A stretch of DNA of 32,000 nucleotides from Candidatus Auribacterota bacterium (lineage in GTDB: Bacteria; Auribacterota; UBA6266), in the NCBI GenBank assembly GCA_023136205.1, contig JAGLRQ010000063.1:6204-38203 (forward strand). Direction: 5' to 3'. The first letter of the stretch is position 1, and each line of letters opens with the position of its first letter. A program made the position numbers and the translations under genes. The notes beneath the pieces were generated by a model that had not been told where the DNA came from, searched no databases, and saw only the letters and a list, made by a program, of their open reading frames with translations. Positions 1,938 through 26,259 of this stretch are shown piece by piece.

Positions 1938-1938
1938 C

Positions 1939-2073
1939 TCGTCCCCACGTCCCACGTCCAAGCGAGTGCAACGAGCGATCGTCCCACGTCCTTCGTCCCT
2001 CGCGTCCCACGTCCAAGCGAGTGAAACGAGCGCTCGTCCCTCGTCCCCACGTCCCACGTCTTTCCGTCCCTCG
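1939..2073. repeat. A-type tandem repeat array 1 (unit CGTCCCACGTCC-AAGCGAGTGAAACGAGCGNTCG-TCC-rich tail)
   Basis: Two copies of the conserved core AAGCGAGTG(C/A)AACGAGCG(A/C)TCG at ~1962 and ~2016 (54 nt apart), embedded in CGTCCC/ACGTCC words. Starts right after the stop of the PLD gene. Same family as 3839-3928 and 4835-5018. Confidence 0.85.
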
Positions 2074-2102
2074 TTTCTGTGGTCTAACTCATTTTTTATG
2101 TA

Positions 2103-2131
2103 TTGCAATTTAGTTATAACTAAGTTATACT
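2103..2131 (+). promoter_or_regulatory. Candidate sigma70-type promoter TTGCAA-N17-TATACT for a leaderless abiEii transcript
   Basis: TTGCAA 2103-2108, 17-nt spacer, TATACT 2126-2131. Exactly 6 nt to ATG 2138 and no Shine-Dalgarno in between. Confidence 0.4.
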
Positions 2132-2137
2132 TCATAT

Positions 2138-2926
2138 ATGAATAAAGAAATTTACAGCATATTGCAAGTAAGGGAGCTGTTCCATCTTGAGTTCTTACGC
2201 TGGCTAAGTCGTAAAATTAAGTCCGAATTCTATGCTCTCAAAGGGGGAACGAACCTGAGATTTTTCTTTAAAAGCTTCCGTTATTCAGAAGATATGGATC
2301 TGGATGTGAATACGATTCCCGTAGAAAAGCTAAAAGACATTGTCATGGAAATCTTAAACGCCAGGTCATTTATAGACAATCTGAGGACACTTAATATTGT
2401 CCAAATCATTCCGCCTAATATCGCAAAGGCCAAGCAGACGCAAACAACCCAGCGTTTCAAGATTCATCTTATTACATGTTCAGGGGAAGATCTTTTTACT
2501 AAGGTTGAGTTTTCACGGCGAGGGAGGAGAGGCTCAGTTGCCGTTCATCCCATATCTGATACAATCCTGCGGTTATATAAGCTGGCGCCGCTGGTGGTTC
2601 CGCATTATGACATTCATTCCGCGGTGTCACAAAAGATCGATGCCCTTGCCGCCCGCGCGGTGACCCAGCCCCGCGATATTTTTGACCTATTTATATTAAG
2701 TTCTCAATATGATGCTCCGGAAGGTAAGCAAACTAAGTATACAGCTCAAATAGCCAAGGCTCACGAAAACATATTCACAATCTCGTTTGAACAATTTCGA
2801 GACACGGTTGTTTCATATCTGTCAGCTGAAGATCAAGCGGCCTATGGCAATCCTCCTATGTGGGATGAAATAAAATTGAAAACAGCGCAATTTTTAGAAG
2901 AAATAAGGGACTGCAAACATGTCTAG
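2138..2926 (+). CDS. AbiEii/AbiGii-family nucleotidyltransferase toxin
   Basis: LKGGTNLRFFFKSFRYSEDMDLDV NTase motif. 262 aa, typical size. Overlaps the downstream AbiEi-like gene by 8 nt. Confidence 0.8.
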   Translation: MNKEIYSILQVRELFHLEFLRWLSRKIKSEFYALKGGTNLRFFFKSFRYSEDMDLDVNTIPVEKLKDIVMEILNARSFIDNLRTLNIVQIIPPNIAKAKQTQTTQRFKIHLITCSGEDLFTKVEFSRRGRRGSVAVHPISDTILRLYKLAPLVVPHYDIHSAVSQKIDALAARAVTQPRDIFDLFILSSQYDAPEGKQTKYTAQIAKAHENIFTISFEQFRDTVVSYLSAEDQAAYGNPPMWDEIKLKTAQFLEEIRDCKHV

Positions 2927-3527
2927 ACAGAATATATTGGTTTATATAAAACAGTTAAACCGCCCGGTTTTTACGACGAGTGAAGTTATGGCCTTGTCCG
3001 GGAAATCACCGTCCACCATCACGCAATCTCTGAATTATCTGCAAAAACAGGGATTGCTTATCAAAGTTCAGCGGGGAATATGGGCCGAGGCCGACAGCCG
3101 GATTAGCCCGTACAGCATCATCCCTTTTTTAACGCCTCGGCACCGGGCTTATGTTTCATTTGTCAGTGCTTTGCATCTGCATGGGATGATTGAACAGATT
3201 CCTCAGGTGATTACCCTGGCCTCAACGTCTCATACCAGGACCGTTTATACAAAAATGGGGACGTTTGCAATCCATCAGATAGCGCCGCAATTCTTTAAGG
3301 GGTTTGATTGGTATCACGGGGATGGGAATTTTCTGATTGCCCAACCGGAAAAGGCCCTGGTGGACAGCCTATATCTCTCAGCGCACAAAAAAAAGCAATT
3401 CGGCTTTTTCCCGGAAATGTCCTTTCCAAAGTCGTTTAGCTTCGCCAGAGCACGGAAGTGGGTGAAATGTATTTCCATTCCGAGTGTGAGGCTATATGTT
3501 GAGAAAAAGTTAATTGAGTTAAGTTAG
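2919..3527 (+). CDS. AbiEi-like antitoxin / transcriptional regulator (N-terminal wHTH)
   Basis: N-terminus FTTSEVMALSGKSPSTITQSLNYLQKQGLLIKVQRGIWA is a typical AbiEi wHTH. ~200 aa and paired with an AbiEii gene. Confidence 0.7.
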   Translation: MSRQNILVYIKQLNRPVFTTSEVMALSGKSPSTITQSLNYLQKQGLLIKVQRGIWAEADSRISPYSIIPFLTPRHRAYVSFVSALHLHGMIEQIPQVITLASTSHTRTVYTKMGTFAIHQIAPQFFKGFDWYHGDGNFLIAQPEKALVDSLYLSAHKKKQFGFFPEMSFPKSFSFARARKWVKCISIPSVRLYVEKKLIELS

Positions 3528-3670
3528 CCCGCGAACAAGGGTAAAGCCTGATTGTAGATACTGCCGCTCCATGGATAAATCTGCGGCTTACCCACAGAGC
3601 TTGGATAACCCTTTGGGTTAACCACACTATCCACAATTCTACTACCACTATTTTTTGCTTTCTTCTTCTT

Positions 3671-3818
3671 AACGAGATAGTTCGAAGCGAAGCGTAGCCT
3701 CCCCCGAGGGGACGAGATACTAACAACGAGATACGGCTTCTAAGCTTTTTGTTTTTTTTGCTTCTAACGAGATACGATTCACGAGCTACGAGATACGGCT
3801 CTTAAACGAGATACGGCT
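3671..3818. repeat. B-type word repeat (A/G)ACGAGATAC(GGCT), about 6-7 degenerate copies
   Basis: Copies at ~3672, 3712, 3726, 3767, 3789 and 3805. Isolated remnants at ~4695 (aacgagatactgc) and ~5061 (tacgagatagtg). Confidence 0.75.
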
Positions 3819-3838
3819 TTTAGGATACTGTTTTTAAT

Positions 3839-3928
3839 TCGTCCAAGCGAGTAAAACGAGCAATCGTCCCACGTCTTCCCGTCCCACGTCCCAGCGAGTG
3901 AAACGAGCGGCCGTCCTTCGTCCCTCGT
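3839..3928. repeat. A-type tandem repeat array 2
   Basis: Cores AAGCGAGTAAAACGAGCAATCG (~3845) and CAGCGAGTGAAACGAGCGGCCG (~3893), 48 nt apart, flanked by GTCCCACGTC words. Ends with CCGTCC..TCCCTCGTCTCT, as array 1 does. Confidence 0.85.
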
Positions 3929-4056
3929 CTCTTCCCAACACCTATCTTTCCTATAGACTATAAGCTCATAAATATGCTTTAATTTCTCTCAGTTTACTAT
4001 ATACTACAACGAAGGTATATCGTCTTATTCTATGTGTAAAATTGAGGAGGTGTCAA

Positions 4057-4350
4057 ATGAGAAATAAATCAATATATGTTCAATTGAAAGATGCTAAGTT
4101 TAAGAGTTTGCTTGGACTTTACAAAGTCGACAGAATAGCCATTTTTGGCTCGTATGCTAAAAGTAAACAGCGGCGAAAGAGTGATATTGACTTCTTAGTC
4201 GAATTTAAAAAAGGAGCAGATCTTTTAGACCAGGTAGGATTAAAGCTCGATTTAGAAAAGTTGTTGTCTAAAAAGGTTGATGTTGTAACACCTAAATCTT
4301 TGAGTAAATATATTAAAAAGAAAGTAATAAAAGAGGCGGTGTATTTATGA
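4057..4350 (+). CDS. mntA: MNT-type nucleotidyltransferase antitoxin (HEPN/MNT module)
   Basis: GSYAKSKQRRKSDIDFLV matches the GS-X10-DxD minimal NTase motif. GAGGAGG sits 6 nt upstream of ATG 4057, so the TTG 4042 start in the ORF track is probably too early. 4-nt overlap with the downstream HEPN gene. Confidence 0.8.
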   Translation: MRNKSIYVQLKDAKFKSLLGLYKVDRIAIFGSYAKSKQRRKSDIDFLVEFKKGADLLDQVGLKLDLEKLLSKKVDVVTPKSLSKYIKKKVIKEAVYL

Positions 4351-4688
4351 GTAAAGATTATAAGGTATATTTACATCATATTCTTGATGCAATTAAAACT
4401 ATAGAGAAATACATCAAAGGACTCAGTGAAAATGACTTTTATAAAAATAAGCTTATTCAAGATGGGGTGATCAGAAATCTTGAAATAATAGGAGAAGCTG
4501 CTAAAAATGTGCCTAAAGAGATACAGAATGAATATTCCCACATTGAGTGGAAGGCAATATCAGGCATGAGGGATGTTCTTATTCATGATTATTTTGGTGT
4601 TGATCTGGAACGAGTTTGGGGAGTTTTGGTAAATAGAATTTCACAATTAAAAAAAGATATATCAGGGATTATTAAAAATAAGAGTTAG
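4347..4688 (+). CDS. hepT: HepT/DUF86 HEPN-domain toxin
   Basis: RDVLIHDY matches the R-X4-H-x-Y HEPN motif. 113 aa. ATGA overlap with the MNT gene. Confidence 0.8.
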   Translation: MSKDYKVYLHHILDAIKTIEKYIKGLSENDFYKNKLIQDGVIRNLEIIGEAAKNVPKEIQNEYSHIEWKAISGMRDVLIHDYFGVDLERVWGVLVNRISQLKKDISGIIKNKS

Positions 4689-4720
4689 ATTTAAACGAGA
4701 TACTGCTTTTTACTCTTTTT

Positions 4721-4826
4721 CTATCTGGTGACGTGGTGACTTGCAACTGATGACTTTTTATCTTGGCAACTATTTCTATCTTTTAAACTGGTGACCTGGC
4801 AACTTTTCCACCTTGCAACTGTGGAC
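4721..4826. repeat. C-type word repeat (GGTGACGTGGTGAC / TTGCAACTG / TGGCAACT words), copy 1
   Basis: ctatctggtgacgtggtgacttgcaactgatgactt (4721-4757) is nearly identical to 5151-5188. Further degenerate words continue to ~4826. Confidence 0.8.
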
Positions 4827-4834
4827 TAATTTAT

Positions 4835-5018
4835 TCGTCCCACATCCGAGCGAGTGAAACGAGCGCTCGTCCTTCGTCCCCACGTCCCACGTCCAAGCGA
4901 GTGAAACGAGCGGTCGTCCTTCCATCCCTCACGTCCCACGTCCAAGCGAGTAAAACGAGCGATCGTCCTTACGTCCCACGTCCTTCCGTCCATCACGTCC
5001 CACGTCCTCCCGTCCCTT
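4835..5018. repeat. A-type tandem repeat array 3 (three full units plus partial units)
   Basis: Cores at ~4847, ~4895 and ~4943 (48-nt spacing), each preceded by CGTCCCAC(G/A)TCC. Two further core-less CGTCCCACGTCC words at 4972 and 4996. Confidence 0.9.
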
Positions 5019-5110
5019 GACTTTCGCCGATAAATATGGTCTAATTTCCCTTTGATTATTTACGAGATAGTGTCTTAAAGTGGTAAATAAATAGGCCGTG
5101 GCTCTATTTA

Positions 5111-5187
5111 TTCTATCTGGTGCCTTGGTGACTGGTGACGTGGTAACTGTTCTATCTTGTGACGTGGTGACTTGCAACTGGTGACTT
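5111..5187. repeat. C-type word repeat, copy 2
   Basis: ttctatctggtgccttggtgactggtgacgtggtaactgttctatcttgtgacgtggtgacttgcaactggtgacttga. It forms a direct repeat with 4721-4757 around A array 3. Confidence 0.8.
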
Positions 5188-6291: not shown

Positions 6292-7329
<1,038 letters not shown>

Positions 7330-7332
7330 TAC

Positions 7333-7450
7333 GGTAATCGTCAATCGGTGACGGCTAAAAAGACGTAACCGAAAAACGATAACCGATACGGGCATCGTAA
7401 CCGAAAAACGATAAACGATACGGGTTGCGTAACCGAAAGACGAATAAATA
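7333..7450. repeat. D-type direct repeat, left copy (includes 32-nt tandem unit CGTAACCGAAAAACGATAACCGATACGGGCAT x ~2.7)
   Basis: 7333-7418 aligns with 7836-7927: 22 identical nt, a 6-nt indel, then ~64 nt with 2 mismatches. Confidence 0.9.
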
Positions 7451-7840
7451 GTGGAAAAAAAGATCACAAGTTTCAGAGACTTAGATGTTTATCAAGGAAC
7501 TTATGCTTCAATGTTAAAAGTAATGAAGGAAATCGTTCCAAAGTTACCGGAACGTGAGAAATATGATTTAAAAGATCAGCTTAGTAGATCAAGTAAATCC
7601 ATTCCAAGGCTAATAGCTGAAGGATATGCAAAGAAACATCAAAAAGCAGGTTTTCAAAAATATATTGATGATGCAATGGCTGAATGTAATGAGACTGTAG
7701 TGAGTCTTTGTCAATCAAGAGATATTTATCCTGAAAATGTTGATATTAATTTGTGTGAAGAGTTAATAGATGATTACGATAAAGCTGGCCGTCAATTATA
7801 CAAGCTAGGTCAGGCATGGAATACATTTAAGAAAAGGTAA
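7451..7840 (+). CDS. Four-helix-bundle protein (23S rRNA intervening-sequence protein family, TIGR02436/PF05635-like)
   Basis: 129 aa. FRDLDVYQ N-terminus and the ...RSSKSIPRLIAEGYAKK... pattern are typical of the family. GTG start. The stop codon lies inside the right D repeat. Confidence 0.75.
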   Translation: MEKKITSFRDLDVYQGTYASMLKVMKEIVPKLPEREKYDLKDQLSRSSKSIPRLIAEGYAKKHQKAGFQKYIDDAMAECNETVVSLCQSRDIYPENVDINLCEELIDDYDKAGRQLYKLGQAWNTFKKR

Positions 7841-7927
7841 TCGTCAATCGGTGACGGTGACGGCCAAATAGACGTAACCGAAAAACGATAACCGATACGG
7901 GCATCGTAACCGAAAAACGATAAACGA
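7836..7927. repeat. D-type direct repeat, right copy
   Basis: See the left copy. Begins GGTAATCGTCAATCGGTGACGG, whose TAA is the stop of the four-helix-bundle ORF. Confidence 0.9.
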
Positions 7928-7944
7928 AAAACCTAGGAGCTTAT

Positions 7945-9003
7945 ATGGAAAAAAATTCTAAAATATACATAGCCGGCCACGATGGCCTGGTCGGTTCCGC
8001 CCTTACAAGAAAATTAAAAGCATCTGGTTATCAGAATATAACTACAAGAACCCTTAAAGAGCTTGATCTTACACGACAGAAAGACGCCGAAGATTTTTTT
8101 GAGAAAGAAAAACCCGAATATGTATTCTTAGCCGCGGCTAAAGTAGGCGGCATACTCGCCAACAGCACCTATAAAGCGGAATTCATATACCAGAATATAA
8201 TGATTGCCGCGAATGTAATACATTCAAGCTATAAATTTGGTGTTAAAAAACTGCTTAATATGGGTTCATCCTGTATATATCCAAAATTAGCGCCGCAACC
8301 GTTAAAAGAAGAATATCTTTTGACCGGAGAGTTAGAACCTACAAACGAACCTTATGCGATTGCCAAGATTTCAGCAATAAAACTGTGCGGATATTATAAT
8401 GAGCAATATGGAACAAATTTTATCTCCGTTATGCCCACTAACCAATATGGCCCAAATGATAATTTTAACCTGAAAACATCACATGTTTTACCCTCTATGT
8501 TAAGGAAGTTTCACTTAGCAAAATTATTATCAGAAGGCAAGTATGATGATATACTCAGCGATTTAAATCTTCCCCCTGAATCTCAAATCTCAAATCTCAA
8601 ATCCGTTGACAGTTTGCTTGCTGATGTTGGCATAGCTGCTCAATCTATTACTCTATGGGGAAGCGGGAGCCCCTACAGAGAATTTCTCTACGTTGATGAT
8701 ACTGCAGAAGCATGTGTTTTTTTAATGCAAAAATATGACGCCAAAGAAATTGGCGAATTTGTGAACATTGGGTCAGGTAAGGATATTCAACTTAAAGAAC
8801 TTGCTAATTTAATAAAACAAATTGTGGGATTTAAAGGTGAAATACAATGGGATACTGCAAAGCCCGATGGTACGCCGAAGAAGCTTTTGGATGTTGAGAG
8901 AATGAATAAATTGGGGTGGAAGGCAAAGGTTAGGTTGGAGGATGGGATTCGGATGGTGTATGAGGGTTACGTGACAAAAAGTACTGAACTCCGACGAAAT
9001 TAA
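7945..9003 (+). CDS. fcl: GDP-L-fucose synthase (GDP-4-keto-6-deoxymannose 3,5-epimerase/4-reductase)
   Basis: KIYIAGHDGLVGSAL, YAIAKISAIKLC (YxxxK) and WGSGSPYREFLYVDD are collinear with E. coli Fcl. Carries an extra ~30-aa insertion relative to it. Confidence 0.9.
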   Translation: MEKNSKIYIAGHDGLVGSALTRKLKASGYQNITTRTLKELDLTRQKDAEDFFEKEKPEYVFLAAAKVGGILANSTYKAEFIYQNIMIAANVIHSSYKFGVKKLLNMGSSCIYPKLAPQPLKEEYLLTGELEPTNEPYAIAKISAIKLCGYYNEQYGTNFISVMPTNQYGPNDNFNLKTSHVLPSMLRKFHLAKLLSEGKYDDILSDLNLPPESQISNLKSVDSLLADVGIAAQSITLWGSGSPYREFLYVDDTAEACVFLMQKYDAKEIGEFVNIGSGKDIQLKELANLIKQIVGFKGEIQWDTAKPDGTPKKLLDVERMNKLGWKAKVRLEDGIRMVYEGYVTKSTELRRN

Positions 9004-23116: not shown

Positions 23117-23190
23117 TATATTTTACTATAACATACACAATATTATTATGCCATGAATTGATATCAACATTAATTTTCAGAGAAGTGGAT

Positions 23191-24081
23191 ATGAATTTCA
23201 AAGAGACAATTAAAAATATGAGGAAGGTTAATCGATTTGACTGGGTGCTTTTTTTAGCTATGGTAATAATGTTTTCTCGTGTGTTTTACCGTTTAGCTGC
23301 TATAGGATGGAAAACCGCTGATTATACCCACGCTTATTTTATTTTACCGATTTCACTCTGGTTTATCTTTAAGAAGAGAAATGCATTAGTTAAAGCTGAA
23401 GGGGTTAGTAAAAGTGGCGCAACCCTTTTTATTTTAGGAGTTGCATCATATCTTTTTGCCGCGCTTAATGAATTTATGTTTTTAGAAGGGTTTTCTTTTG
23501 TTCTTATGATGTGGGCAGTATTTAGATTAAGATTCACAAAAGAGTCTTTCCAGAAAATATTATTTCCTCTTGCTTATCTCTTGTTTCTTGTTCCGCCGCC
23601 CTCACTTGCCATTGATACAGTAACACTTCCTTTAAAGAAAATAAGCACTTACGGAAGTTATTTTTTATTTAAACTGTTCCGGTTTTCGGTTGAAGTTCAT
23701 GGAGCTATATTAAAAGTAGGAGAACATGAGCTTTTTATAGCTGATGCCTGCAGTGGTTTCCGTTCAATGGTAACTTTGCTTGCCCTAGGTGCAGTATATG
23801 CCTATGTTCAGAATACGTCTTTGTTGAAAAAATGGATAATCTTTCTTTCCGTTATCCCCTTGGGAATTATGGGCAATATTTTAAGAATTACTATTACAGG
23901 CTGTCTTTCTTATTTTTGCGATCCTAAATACGCGGAAGGATTTTTCCACAATTTTTCAGGAATGGTGCTTTTTGTTTTCACGACAATAGGGCTTATGATA
24001 CTAACTGAATTAATTTGCAAAAAACAGCCGCCGAATACACCGAAAGATATCGAGAAAAGAGTAAAAACTACAAATAAATAG
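23191..24081 (+). CDS. Exosortase (EpsH/Xrt family), short form
   Basis: Polytopic. ADACSGFRSM (catalytic Cys), GNILRI (Arg) and FFHNFSG (His) conserved. Next to PEP-CTERM genes and EpsI. ATG 23191 preferred to TTG 23158. Confidence 0.85.
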   Translation: MNFKETIKNMRKVNRFDWVLFLAMVIMFSRVFYRLAAIGWKTADYTHAYFILPISLWFIFKKRNALVKAEGVSKSGATLFILGVASYLFAALNEFMFLEGFSFVLMMWAVFRLRFTKESFQKILFPLAYLLFLVPPPSLAIDTVTLPLKKISTYGSYFLFKLFRFSVEVHGAILKVGEHELFIADACSGFRSMVTLLALGAVYAYVQNTSLLKKWIIFLSVIPLGIMGNILRITITGCLSYFCDPKYAEGFFHNFSGMVLFVFTTIGLMILTELICKKQPPNTPKDIEKRVKTTNK

Positions 24082-24906: not shown

Positions 24907-24966
24907 AGCCGCCAAATACACCGAAAGACACCGAGAAAAGAGTAAAAACTACAAATAAATAGTATT
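24907..24966. repeat. Duplicate of the exosortase gene 3' end (direct repeat of 24027-24086)
   Basis: agccgccaaatacaccgaaagacaccgagaaaagagtaaaaactacaaataaatagt versus agccgccgaatacaccgaaagatatcgagaaaagagtaaaaactacaaataaatagt, about 4 mismatches in ~57-60 nt. An in-frame stop lies just upstream of the duplicate. Confidence 0.9.
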
Positions 24967-24990
24967 AAATATTTTCAAAAAATATAATAA

Positions 24991-25078
24991 TTTTTCGGTG
25001 CAATTCGGTGTATTCGGTGGCTAAAAGAAGGTTTGTATCTGTATCAGTGCAATTTAGCATATTCGGCGGCTAAAAAAA
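24991..25078. repeat. E-type direct repeat, left copy (TTCGGTG(T/C)A(A)TTCGG(T/C)G words + GGCTAAAA + TTGTATCTGTATC)
   Basis: Aligns with 25461-25533 (tttttcggtg[c/t]aattcgg[t/c]gtattcgg[t/a]ggctaaaa..gtttgtatctgtatc[a/g]gt..). Confidence 0.9.
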
Positions 25079-25080
25079 CA

Positions 25081-25473
25081 ATGAGAATTGCCCAAAAGAA
25101 TATTTTGAATAAAGATCTAAGCGATAAAATTATTGGGGCCGCTCTTAATGTATATAACATATTGGGGCGTGGCTTCTTAGAGAAAGTGTATGAAAACGCG
25201 TTATGTCTTGAGTTAAAAAGATCCAATATTCCCTATGAATGTCAGAAGCAAATAAAAGTGTTGTACCGGGAACAAATGGTAGGAGATTATATTTCTGATA
25301 TTGTTGTCGATAATAAAATTATTTTAGAAGTTAAAGCAACGCTTGAAACCCCGGGTTACCATGAAGCTCAGATACTCAATTATCTAAAAGCAACAGGGTT
25401 TAATTTGGGATATTTGTTAAACTTTGGGAGTAAAGACAAACTGTATTTTAAACGATTTGTTTTTTCGGTGTAA
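25081..25473 (+). CDS. GxxExxY protein (TIGR04256 / PD-(D/E)XK_3-like)
   Basis: GRGFLEKVYENAL carries the GxxExxY signature. DIVVDNKIILEVKA is a D...E-x-K nuclease-like core. ATG 25081 chosen because the TTG 25033 extension (MYLYQ...) is encoded by the repeat and recurs upstream of epsI. Confidence 0.8.
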   Translation: MRIAQKNILNKDLSDKIIGAALNVYNILGRGFLEKVYENALCLELKRSNIPYECQKQIKVLYREQMVGDYISDIVVDNKIILEVKATLETPGYHEAQILNYLKATGFNLGYLLNFGSKDKLYFKRFVFSV

Positions 25474-25533
25474 TTCGGCGTATTCGGAGGCTAAAAAAGT
25501 TTGTATCTGTATCGGTACTTTCAGCATCTAAAA
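25461..25533. repeat. E-type direct repeat, right copy
   Basis: Starts inside the last codons of the GxxExxY ORF (..ttt tcg gtg taa). Confidence 0.9.
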
Positions 25534-25545
25534 AGGTATCTATCA

Positions 25546-26259
25546 ATGGATAAAAAATCTTTAATTCGAGATATAATAATGGTTCTACTAATGCTTGGCG
25601 CGGCATTGTATGTATTTACTCACCCGGCGGAGAAACAATCACCGGAAGAAAAAATAAACCTGTCTTCCCTTATCCCTGCTGCATTCAATGATTGGATAAG
25701 CAAAACCTATGACACCTCTGATTACAAAGATAAATGGCAGTCCATAAACGAGCTTCTTGTAAGAGATTATTATGAAAAAGGCAAAGGAAGAAGATTGGGG
25801 TTTATCCTGGAATACAGCAGTGACTTAAGAAAAAACTTCAGCTTGCATTTCCCTGAAATTTGTCATCGGTCAGGGGGGAACGAAGTAATCTTTTTAGAGC
25901 CTTTAGAAATAGATTTGGGTAATGGCAAGACTATAAAGGCAAAATGTTTGTATATAAAAGGAATCGAAGAAGGAATAGATAAAATAGTTGTATACTGGTT
26001 AACAATAGATAATAAGCAATATTACAGGACTTTTTTTATTAAGTTAGACCAAATGTTAAGCGGCCTTCTTAAAAAGTCAAAAAGGGGTTTTTTGGTAAGA
26101 GTTGATTACTCTGAAGATGTTGAATATACAGAAAAATGTATCGAAAACGCGAGAAAAGTCATAGCTAATTTTATTAAAGACCTCTACAATACACTTCTAA
26201 CCACCCATTCCACTCCGGGGGTGGAATTGGAGATGTTATTTGGGAGAAACACGGAATAA
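25546..26259 (+). CDS. epsI: EpsI-family exosortase-associated protein
   Basis: N-terminal TM helix followed by a periplasmic domain. HFPEICHRSGG fits the EpsI H-x-PE-x-C motif. ATG 25546 chosen. Confidence 0.7.
   Translation: MDKKSLIRDIIMVLLMLGAALYVFTHPAEKQSPEEKINLSSLIPAAFNDWISKTYDTSDYKDKWQSINELLVRDYYEKGKGRRLGFILEYSSDLRKNFSLHFPEICHRSGGNEVIFLEPLEIDLGNGKTIKAKCLYIKGIEEGIDKIVVYWLTIDNKQYYRTFFIKLDQMLSGLLKKSKRGFLVRVDYSEDVEYTEKCIENARKVIANFIKDLYNTLLTTHSTPGVELEMLFGRNTE

Follow-up and report, generated by a model that had tools for sequence, protein, structure and literature searches.

The gmd and fcl genes lie 1–2 nt apart in more distant relatives (L010, L094–L097), in agreement with the original prediction that the two are normally adjacent. 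In the 32-kb stretch of Candidatus Auribacterota DNA that was analyzed here, hereafter termed the window, the pair is separated by a small gene that is bordered on both sides by repeated sequence. The locus raises the question of what kind of element occupies the spacer, and how it is gained or lost. The interpretation that is favored here, and that is considered probable rather than assured, is that the segment is an intervening-sequence-like hairpin cassette in an operon spacer that is gained or lost by recombination between copies of the hairpin.

The gene and repeats in the gmd-fcl spacer

The features of the locus are as follows.

6292–7329, + strand: upstream host gene gmd, for GDP-mannose 4,6-dehydratase; Pfam PF16363 (GDP_Man_Dehyd), E 1.8e-158
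7327–7329: TAA stop codon of gmd
7333–7450, + strand: left D-repeat copy (DR-L), a hairpin element; homology to DR-R spans 7333–7418 and decays to 7450
7451–7840, + strand: four-helix-bundle gene, 129 aa, GTG start; PF05635, TIGR02436
7836–7927, + strand: right D-repeat copy (DR-R), a hairpin with one extra GGTGAC
7945–9003, + strand: downstream host gene fcl, for an epimerase of the GDP-L-fucose synthase type; Pfam Epimerase, E 1.6e-61; homologues are named GDP-L-fucose synthase

The two repeats begin with 22 of 22 identical nucleotides (7333–7354 and 7836–7857) followed by a 6-nt indel that corresponds to the extra GGTGAC in DR-R. Past the indel, 71 of 73 positions match (7346–7418 and 7855–7927), and the distance between the copies changes from 503 nt before the indel to 509 nt after it. 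A 32-nt unit is tandemly repeated internally in 2.6 copies at 7364–7448. The TAA stop codon of the four-helix-bundle gene (7838–7840) falls within the first bases of DR-R. The location of the gene between gmd and fcl, its flanks of DR-L and DR-R, the 22-nt identity, the indel, the internal unit and the placement of the stop codon had all been described in the original prediction and were borne out. Chance similarity is excluded as none of 100 shuffled sequences contained a match to either repeat probe, and neither probe has a further occurrence in the 32-kb window. An apparent extension of the repeat homology to the start codons (TGGAAAAAA) was judged to be coincidental because it is weaker in the related locus L013.

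A collapsed or duplicated repeat in a metagenome-assembled genome might mimic this arrangement, and several contigs indeed break at the repeat (L007, L008, L009), with those of L007 and L008, which derive from other samples, ending 3 nt short of the end of DR-R. These contig ends were rejected as evidence of polymorphism, as assembly graphs break at any repeat. The arrangement and the spacing of the gene are identical in four other metagenome samples (L001, L006, L007 and L008) that were assembled independently, giving five independent assemblies with the same structure, and diverged relatives share the layout. The structure is therefore not regarded as an assembly artefact, an explanation whose probability is close to nil.

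The product of the intervening gene matches PF05635 (E 1.5e-17, 64.1 bits against a cut-off of 33.8) and TIGR02436 (E 1.4e-14, 54.2 bits against a cut-off of 24), and more weakly PDB entry 2GSC (E 1e-3). The GTG start was preferred over the ATG at 7511 (gene callers' choice) because homologues cover 98–100% of the 129-aa form. The protein has more than 2700 homologues, and those with a named source are mostly labeled Omnitrophica. PF05635 was the only domain found in the protein, which has no transposase or nuclease domain. Searches with PADLOC and PHROGs produced nothing meaningful for this protein or for the GxxExxY protein discussed below.

The repeats had been viewed originally as plain direct repeats. 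The direct layout is real, but the hairpin nature of each copy had been missed: what was termed "direct repeats" is a hairpin element of roughly 90–120 nt that is present twice. The heptads GGTAATC GTCAATC GGTGACG of DR-L pair with GACGTAACCGAAAAACGATAACC to produce a stem at about 7332–7385. DR-L folds with −34.9 kcal/mol (z −3.9), a stability reached by none of 200 shuffled sequences. DR-R folds with −26.7 kcal/mol (z −2.7), the single repeat of the related locus L011 with −39.2 kcal/mol (z −4.4), and the left copy of L013 with −77.4 kcal/mol. The 5′ arm of the element is made of GGTRAYC-type heptads and the 3′ arm of CGTAACC-type heptads, the number of heptads differing between copies of the D repeat. 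The arms surround two conserved and mutually complementary cores, m1 (GGTAACGAAGCCCGTATCGGT) and m2 (ACGAWACGGGCATCGTAACC), which in L011 and L013 appear as GGTGACGAAGCCCGTATCG and CCGATACGGGCNNCGTAACC, respectively, and are nearly reverse complements of each other.

In the window, m2 is retained at 7388–7402 in DR-L, with a degenerate second m2 at 7420–7434, and at 7897–7911 in DR-R. Both copies share a deletion of m1 that was found in no relative and the canonical stem consequently is gone. The upstream and downstream flanks with m2 on both sides nevertheless preserve residual complementarity (−42.9 kcal/mol, z −6.3). The window copies are 97% identical to each other whereas the two copies in L013 differ at about 12% of aligned positions, as counted from the alignment. 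Therefore, the window pair appears to have been recently homogenized or re-duplicated.

The consensus core stem comprises 16 pairs with three conserved positions at which A lies opposite A. Only one compensatory pair was detected in this stem because both arms are conserved in sequence. Mismatches in the arms show no G-U bias (49 versus 53) and thus give no sign of selection for RNA pairing, and A opposite A is in excess (100 versus 32 for T opposite T). The m1 and m2 cores are each a small palindrome of the form ACGA-N8-TCGT. Judged from sequence, the conservation of the arms and the palindrome favor sequence-specific recognition over mere pairing, without settling the matter.

Empty and filled states of the gmd-fcl site

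The same site was surveyed in relatives by inspection of the surroundings of the nearest fcl homologues. In L011, gmd and fcl are separated by a 126-nt spacer which consists of exactly one D-type repeat with no gene between. An empty gmd-fcl site with a single D repeat had been predicted, as a check that was set beforehand. Filled sites were observed in L013, in which gmd is followed by a 181-nt D-type repeat, the gene, ~340 nt of tandem-expanded D-type repeat and fcl, and in L009, a 939-nt contig on which a diverged 223-nt D-type region lies between the gene and fcl. The first 323 nt of L009 are identical to the window after which the two diverge; this switch was set aside as evidence, recombination and a chimeric contig both being possible.

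The nucleotide identity of gmd is 86.4% between the window and L011, 85.5% between the window and L013, and 87.8% between L011 and L013, and fcl gives the same order. Thus, L011 is the closest relative of the filled locus L013 and is about as near to the window as L013 is, and the empty site is nested between filled ones. With the gene tree (window, (L011, L013)), either one loss or two gains fit. The L011 repeat matches the left copy of L013 in its first heptads; beginning with the first core motif, and again in its last 14 nt, it matches the right copy. Left resembling left and right resembling right is the pattern of a reciprocal exchange inside the repeat, in either direction.

In its empty state, as in L011, the spacer of this lineage contains a single solo hairpin, and in its filled state, as in the window, L013 and L009, the gene between two hairpin copies; the gene and one hairpin would have been gained or lost via reciprocal recombination between the copies. 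About 100 nt of homology suffices for ordinary homologous recombination. Neither an excision junction nor a circle nor a dedicated recombinase was seen, the open reading frames of the window having been scanned against Pfam without detection of an integrase domain. The near-identity of the window copies would reflect a recent round of re-homogenization or re-duplication. The original prediction had proposed that a circular cassette composed of the reading frame plus one repeat inserted into a pre-existing copy of the repeat. The one-repeat empty site and the exchange pattern speak in part for this proposal, and the tree accommodates loss of the cassette as readily as its gain. The junction, which had been anticipated to be clean, is not fully so: in the window and L013, the gmd stop codon and the first heptad are separated by an additional 8 nt (TRATACGG) that are absent from L011 and are not accounted for by a simple exchange within the repeat.

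No promoter-like site or terminator-like site on the + strand was found in 7330–7945. The cassette would be read through from gmd, and the hairpins may be processed in the transcript by RNase III, by analogy with rRNA intervening sequences, so that gmd and fcl both continue to be expressed. Across loci with genes of this subfamily, all 36 of the upstream neighbors are encoded on the strand of the gene, as are 27 of 32 downstream neighbors.

The main rival explanation is that the hairpins are host spacer elements with regulatory or RNA-stability functions, akin to REP or ERIC sequences, and that the gene is a static old passenger that inserted once in an ancestor. In L011 the gene would have been lost by ordinary deletion between hairpins, the likeness of the window copies would be due to gene conversion, and nothing would be mobile at present. 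The sharing of the insertion by three diverged lineages, the divergence between the two copies in L013 and the constant location of the gene on the host strand agree with this explanation. So does L098, in which the gmd-fcl spacer is filled by a solo hairpin of a different arm family, that of the GxxExxY type described below.

The divergence of the gene bears on this explanation. Comparison of the window with L013 yielded a dN of 0.031 and a dS of 0.326 for the gene (dN/dS about 0.1), and the gene therefore is under purifying selection. In the same comparison, dS reaches 0.82 in gmd and 1.20 in fcl so that the value for the gene is 2.5–3.7 times lower than those of its flanks, which counts against a passenger that entered once and remained static. 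The low divergence is concentrated in the 5′ 235 nt of the gene and does not extend into the flank as the end of gmd that adjoins the gene is only 79–83% identical. Moreover, the subfamily as a whole shows an even level of synonymous identity along the gene, and general nucleotide constraint thus does not explain the low dS. It is plausible, albeit not proven, that part of the gene was exchanged recently. The stronger proposition that the gene is younger than its flanks was rejected: the lower dS is real, but it originates mostly from the 5′ 235 nt and is suggestive only.

Hairpin arms accompany gene families

A protein-based scan of metagenome contigs retrieved 80 loci from many samples, with homologues that are 65–79% identical and neighboring genes that are varied. 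The m1 and m2 cores were present in 55 of 85 loci examined compared to 0.2 hits expected in shuffled sequences. The most frequent layout (27 loci) is that of inverted arms in the order m1, gene, m2, with m1 ~35 nt upstream of the start codon and m2 ~15 nt downstream of the stop codon. The arms in these loci enclose the gene right up to its start and stop codons, and the gene thus occupies the loop of an extended stem. Direct m2/m2 flanks were observed in seven loci, including the window and L013, and the swapped layout with m2 upstream and m1 downstream in two; a further 23 loci have other arm sequences, several of which also are complementary. The direct-repeat layout of the window is therefore a minority form, seen in 7–9 loci, and inverted arms are commoner. 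Complementarity between upstream and downstream flanks produced z below −3 in 35 of 69 loci. Other four-helix-bundle genes had been expected to have flanking direct repeats, and such repeats border 19 of 70 genes of the subfamily as against 10 of 148 neighboring genes; some of these 10 are longer-start versions of the subfamily gene itself or lie directly beside it.

The hairpin also occurs without the gene. At least 18 solo hairpins, in which m1 is followed by m2 within about 50–120 nt, were counted by hand from the table of motif hits in 11 loci. They are arranged singly or in tandem arrays and occupy several spacers in L073, L043 and L024. The last of these contains a 119-nt tandem array of solo units around a single unit with the gene in its loop, and the solo unit looks like the full unit minus the gene.

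The hairpin family belongs to the gene and not only to the site. That the same arm cores accompany the subfamily in dozens of contigs with different neighbors, and that the gene family is strongly enriched for flanking repeats, are difficult to reconcile with host spacer elements that harbor a static passenger, although the solo hairpins in L073 and L043 do adjoin ordinary genes at several spacers, as host elements would.

A second gene in the window that is associated with hairpins provides further evidence. The relevant features are as follows.

24907–25022, + strand: hairpin of a second family with arms AGCCGCCAAATACACCGAAAGACACCGA / TCGGTGCAATTCGGTGTATTCGGTGGCT, an inverted repeat of 32 nt that is 81% complementary
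25081–25473, + strand: GxxExxY / PDDEXK_3 gene, 130 aa; PF13366, E 5e-39; TIGR04256

The hairpin folds with −42.8 kcal/mol (z −7.8). The GxxExxY gene is wedged between exosortase genes (EpsH, 23158–24081) and a DUF3485 gene (25501–26259), and the 3′ arm of the upstream hairpin recurs in direct orientation on either side of it, at 24991–25048 and 25461–25516, with the TAA stop codon of the gene inside the right copy. The units of these arms (CACCGA / TCGGTG) are unrelated to the D repeat. GxxExxY homologues in L100 and L102 that are 58–68% identical have the same arm vocabulary: inverted arms abut the start and stop codons in L100, and the order in L102 is hairpin, gene, hairpin. As different gene families in the same genome have different arms, the arms follow the gene family and not the host genome. 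The explanation based on static host elements is further weakened by this result and overall is considered rather unlikely.

Alternatively, the gene product itself might mobilize the element, with the solo hairpins as non-autonomous derivatives, comparable to miniature elements with their transposase or to REPINs with RAYT, and the direct-repeat form as a by-product of insertion beside an existing hairpin. The conservation of the arms in sequence and not merely in pairing, together with the ACGA-N8-TCGT mini-palindrome, suggests recognition by a protein, each of the two gene families has its own arm family, the four-helix-bundle gene is under purifying selection, and the L024 solo units resemble the full element without the gene. 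Mobilization of this type was suggested long ago by Ralph and McClelland, according to PMC4990558. Against these points, no catalytic activity is known for four-helix bundles, neither a transposase nor a nuclease domain was detected in the protein, no target-site duplication was seen in the flanks examined, specifically at the arm ends in related loci, and genomes contain multiple copies of the gene, many in number, instead of a single master copy. Self-mobilization by the gene product is accordingly regarded as improbable.

A scan for the D-repeat 19-mer in 185,579 species-representative genomes, a set that evidently does not include the genome of the window, returned three matches in unrelated bacteria, which is approximately the number expected by chance. 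A scan of viral contigs with the m1 19-mer yielded nothing, and neither an Rfam family nor rRNA was identified in the window and seven related loci.

Relation to intervening sequences and other repeat-bounded elements

Gene-bearing intervening sequences in 23S rRNA are present in Leptospira, Coxiella, Xanthomonas and Brucella, where helix 25 or helix 45 is the site of insertion. In the Coxiella example, the loop of a hairpin contains an S23p (PF05635) gene with tandem heptamers next to it, and the element is excised by RNase III (PMC4990558). The element in the window and its relatives are similar in several respects: the protein family is the same, the distribution is sporadic, gene-less versions exist, complementary arms enclose the gene in most relatives, and tandem heptamers, the GGTAATC GTCAATC GGTGACG series in the window, adjoin the gene. 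In contrast to the rRNA elements, the window element is positioned between the protein-coding genes gmd and fcl and its arms are duplicated as direct hairpin copies; furthermore, the Coxiella gene is decaying whereas purifying selection acts on that in the window. Thus, the window element resembles an intervening sequence, but is not a strict member of the group as it is not located in rRNA.

Other elements that are bounded by short repeats offer partial parallels. As in REPIN/RAYT systems, the associated gene is flanked by the same arms; the dispersal of hairpin doublets over intergenic spacers may also be shared, with solo hairpins at several spacers in L073, L043 and L024 and no copy beyond the gmd-fcl locus in the 32-kb window. 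However, RAYT is a Y1 HUH transposase that is present in one copy, whereas the window gene encodes a four-helix bundle and belongs to a family with many copies per genome. Identity with REPIN/RAYT was rejected because no Y1 transposase was found, PF05635 being the only domain. Correia and ERIC elements likewise are short inverted-repeat elements in operons, and pdif modules are small modules bounded by inverted sites, but the window element differs in having arms composed of heptads and a conserved gene family, and in having no Xer-type site and no TA target duplication. A diversity-generating retroelement, to which the Avd protein might point, was discounted as no reverse transcriptase domain occurs in the window. 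Transposons and miniature inverted-repeat elements were dismissed as there is no target-site duplication in the flanks examined and no transposase domain.

The likeness to an integron cassette is closer in layout. If the segment were such a gene cassette, the repeat would be an attC-like site acted on by an integron integrase and the cassette would be circular. Integron cassettes similarly are promoterless single-gene units on one strand with one folded site per gene that overlaps the stop codon at the 3′ end, an empty site keeps one copy, and toxin-antitoxin modules that are separated by repeats lie nearby in the present case. Nevertheless, no GTTRRRY / RYYYAAC core was identified in 7333–7450 or 7836–7927, the Pfam scan revealed no integrase among the open reading frames of the window, and the gene is inside the hairpin in most relatives, an arrangement that is not known from integron cassettes. 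Integron identity was rejected on the grounds of the missing attC cores and the lack of an integrase domain in the window, and this origin is viewed as highly improbable.

A broader proposal, which is advanced only tentatively and is more doubtful than the interpretation of the gmd-fcl locus itself, is that there is an unrecognized class of hairpin-borne cassettes whose gene-bearing members are represented by the PF05635 and GxxExxY genes. Each family would recognize its own heptad-built arms, and the units might move between transcribed spacers by hairpin recombination and leave solo hairpins behind; the 23S rRNA intervening sequences would be the special case of cassettes that landed in rRNA.

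The origin and spread of gene-bearing rRNA intervening sequences and the role of the four-helix-bundle protein have been in question since the early 1990s (PMC4990558). The present loci reveal an intervening-sequence-like unit outside rRNA in ordinary operons, and our literature search found no description of hairpin-flanked copies of such elements outside rRNA. The conserved arm motifs, the gene-less derivatives, the empty and filled states at one position and the second, unrelated gene family provide handles on the question, and concrete sequences are available for tests of binding, cleavage and recombination. PF05635 genes also have been noted inside cas operons, for example between cmr3 and cmr2, and were read as functionally associated with them (Zhang and Ye, 2013; PMC3936711). 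These genes too are wedged between normally adjacent operon genes, but flanking repeats were not examined in that study (PMC3936711). PF05635 genes in cas, O-antigen and exosortase loci may alternatively reflect insertion instead of functional association.

Separately from the gmd-fcl site, L011 contains another, distant four-helix-bundle gene that is flanked by inverted TTGAAAT / ATTTCAA blocks.

Occupants of the gmd-fcl junction

The octamer TRATACGG separates the gmd stop codon from the first heptad, the 7-nt unit from which the hairpin arms are built, in both filled sites: that of the window (7330-7337) and that of L013 (5088-5095), a relative with a gene between hairpin repeats. TRATACGG is absent from the empty site of L011, a relative with one hairpin between gmd and fcl, and the gmd stop codon there belongs to the first heptad. 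The gmd-fcl spacer of a further related locus, L098, is occupied by a solo hairpin, which is a hairpin element without a gene, of the second (CACCGA/TCGGTG) family (448-568). Therefore, the same operon junction accommodates different hairpin families in different lineages. Within the fcl coding sequence of the window, the heptamer AATCTCA is repeated in perfect tandem (3.6 copies, 8579-8603).

Positions 1-323 of L009, another relative with the gene between hairpin repeats, are identical to window 7364-7686, past which divergence is ~10% over the remaining gene and ~20% in fcl. Either this identity tract arose by recombination and ends within the gene, or the assembly is chimeric. The first of the 32-nt units in DR-L, the left hairpin-repeat copy, marks the start of the L009 contig, and the contigs L007 and L008, which share the arrangement of the window, end 3 nt short of the end of DR-R, the right copy; all three derive from other samples. 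Contig termini of this kind at the repeat are typical assembly-graph breaks.

Other genes associated with hairpins

Inverted TTGAAAT/ATTTCAA heptamer blocks, including ATATGCTTTGCGAAAT paired with its own complement, flank a distant four-helix-bundle gene (27% identical) in L011 (2900-3680 and 4690-4780), with one more direct copy beyond it after the next gene (PHO4). In the related locus L024 (3254-4284), 119-nt solo hairpin units form a tandem array on both sides of the four-helix-bundle gene (289 nt at 93% identity), which is located in the loop of one such unit. The exosortase locus of the window contains the following insertion:

24907-25516, GxxExxY/PDDEXK_3 gene and repeats

A hairpin lies upstream of this gene and direct copies of one arm are present on both flanks. 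The architecture is identical to that of the four-helix-bundle cassette, with an unrelated sequence in the repeats.

Repeat-bearing spacers of the window

Modules and CpG-rich, repeat-bearing intergenic spacers
1938-2137, spacer
2138-3527, AbiEii/AbiEi module
3528-4041, spacer
4042-4688, MNT/HepT module
4689-5185, spacer
7330-7450, spacer
7841-7944, spacer

The region 1938-5186 looks like a cassette array. Seven copies of a 47-58-nt unit, CGTCCCACGTCCAAGCGAGTGAAACGAGCGNTCGTCC, are distributed over three long spacers, and both modules are bracketed by spacers bearing this unit. The region includes the additional short-unit repeats ACGAGATACGGCT and CTGGTGACGTGGTGACTTGCAACTG; no inverted repeats were found within it. 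The CpG-rich spacers contain 6.6-14 CpG per 100 nt compared to 3.3 in the whole window and 0-3.9 in ordinary spacers.
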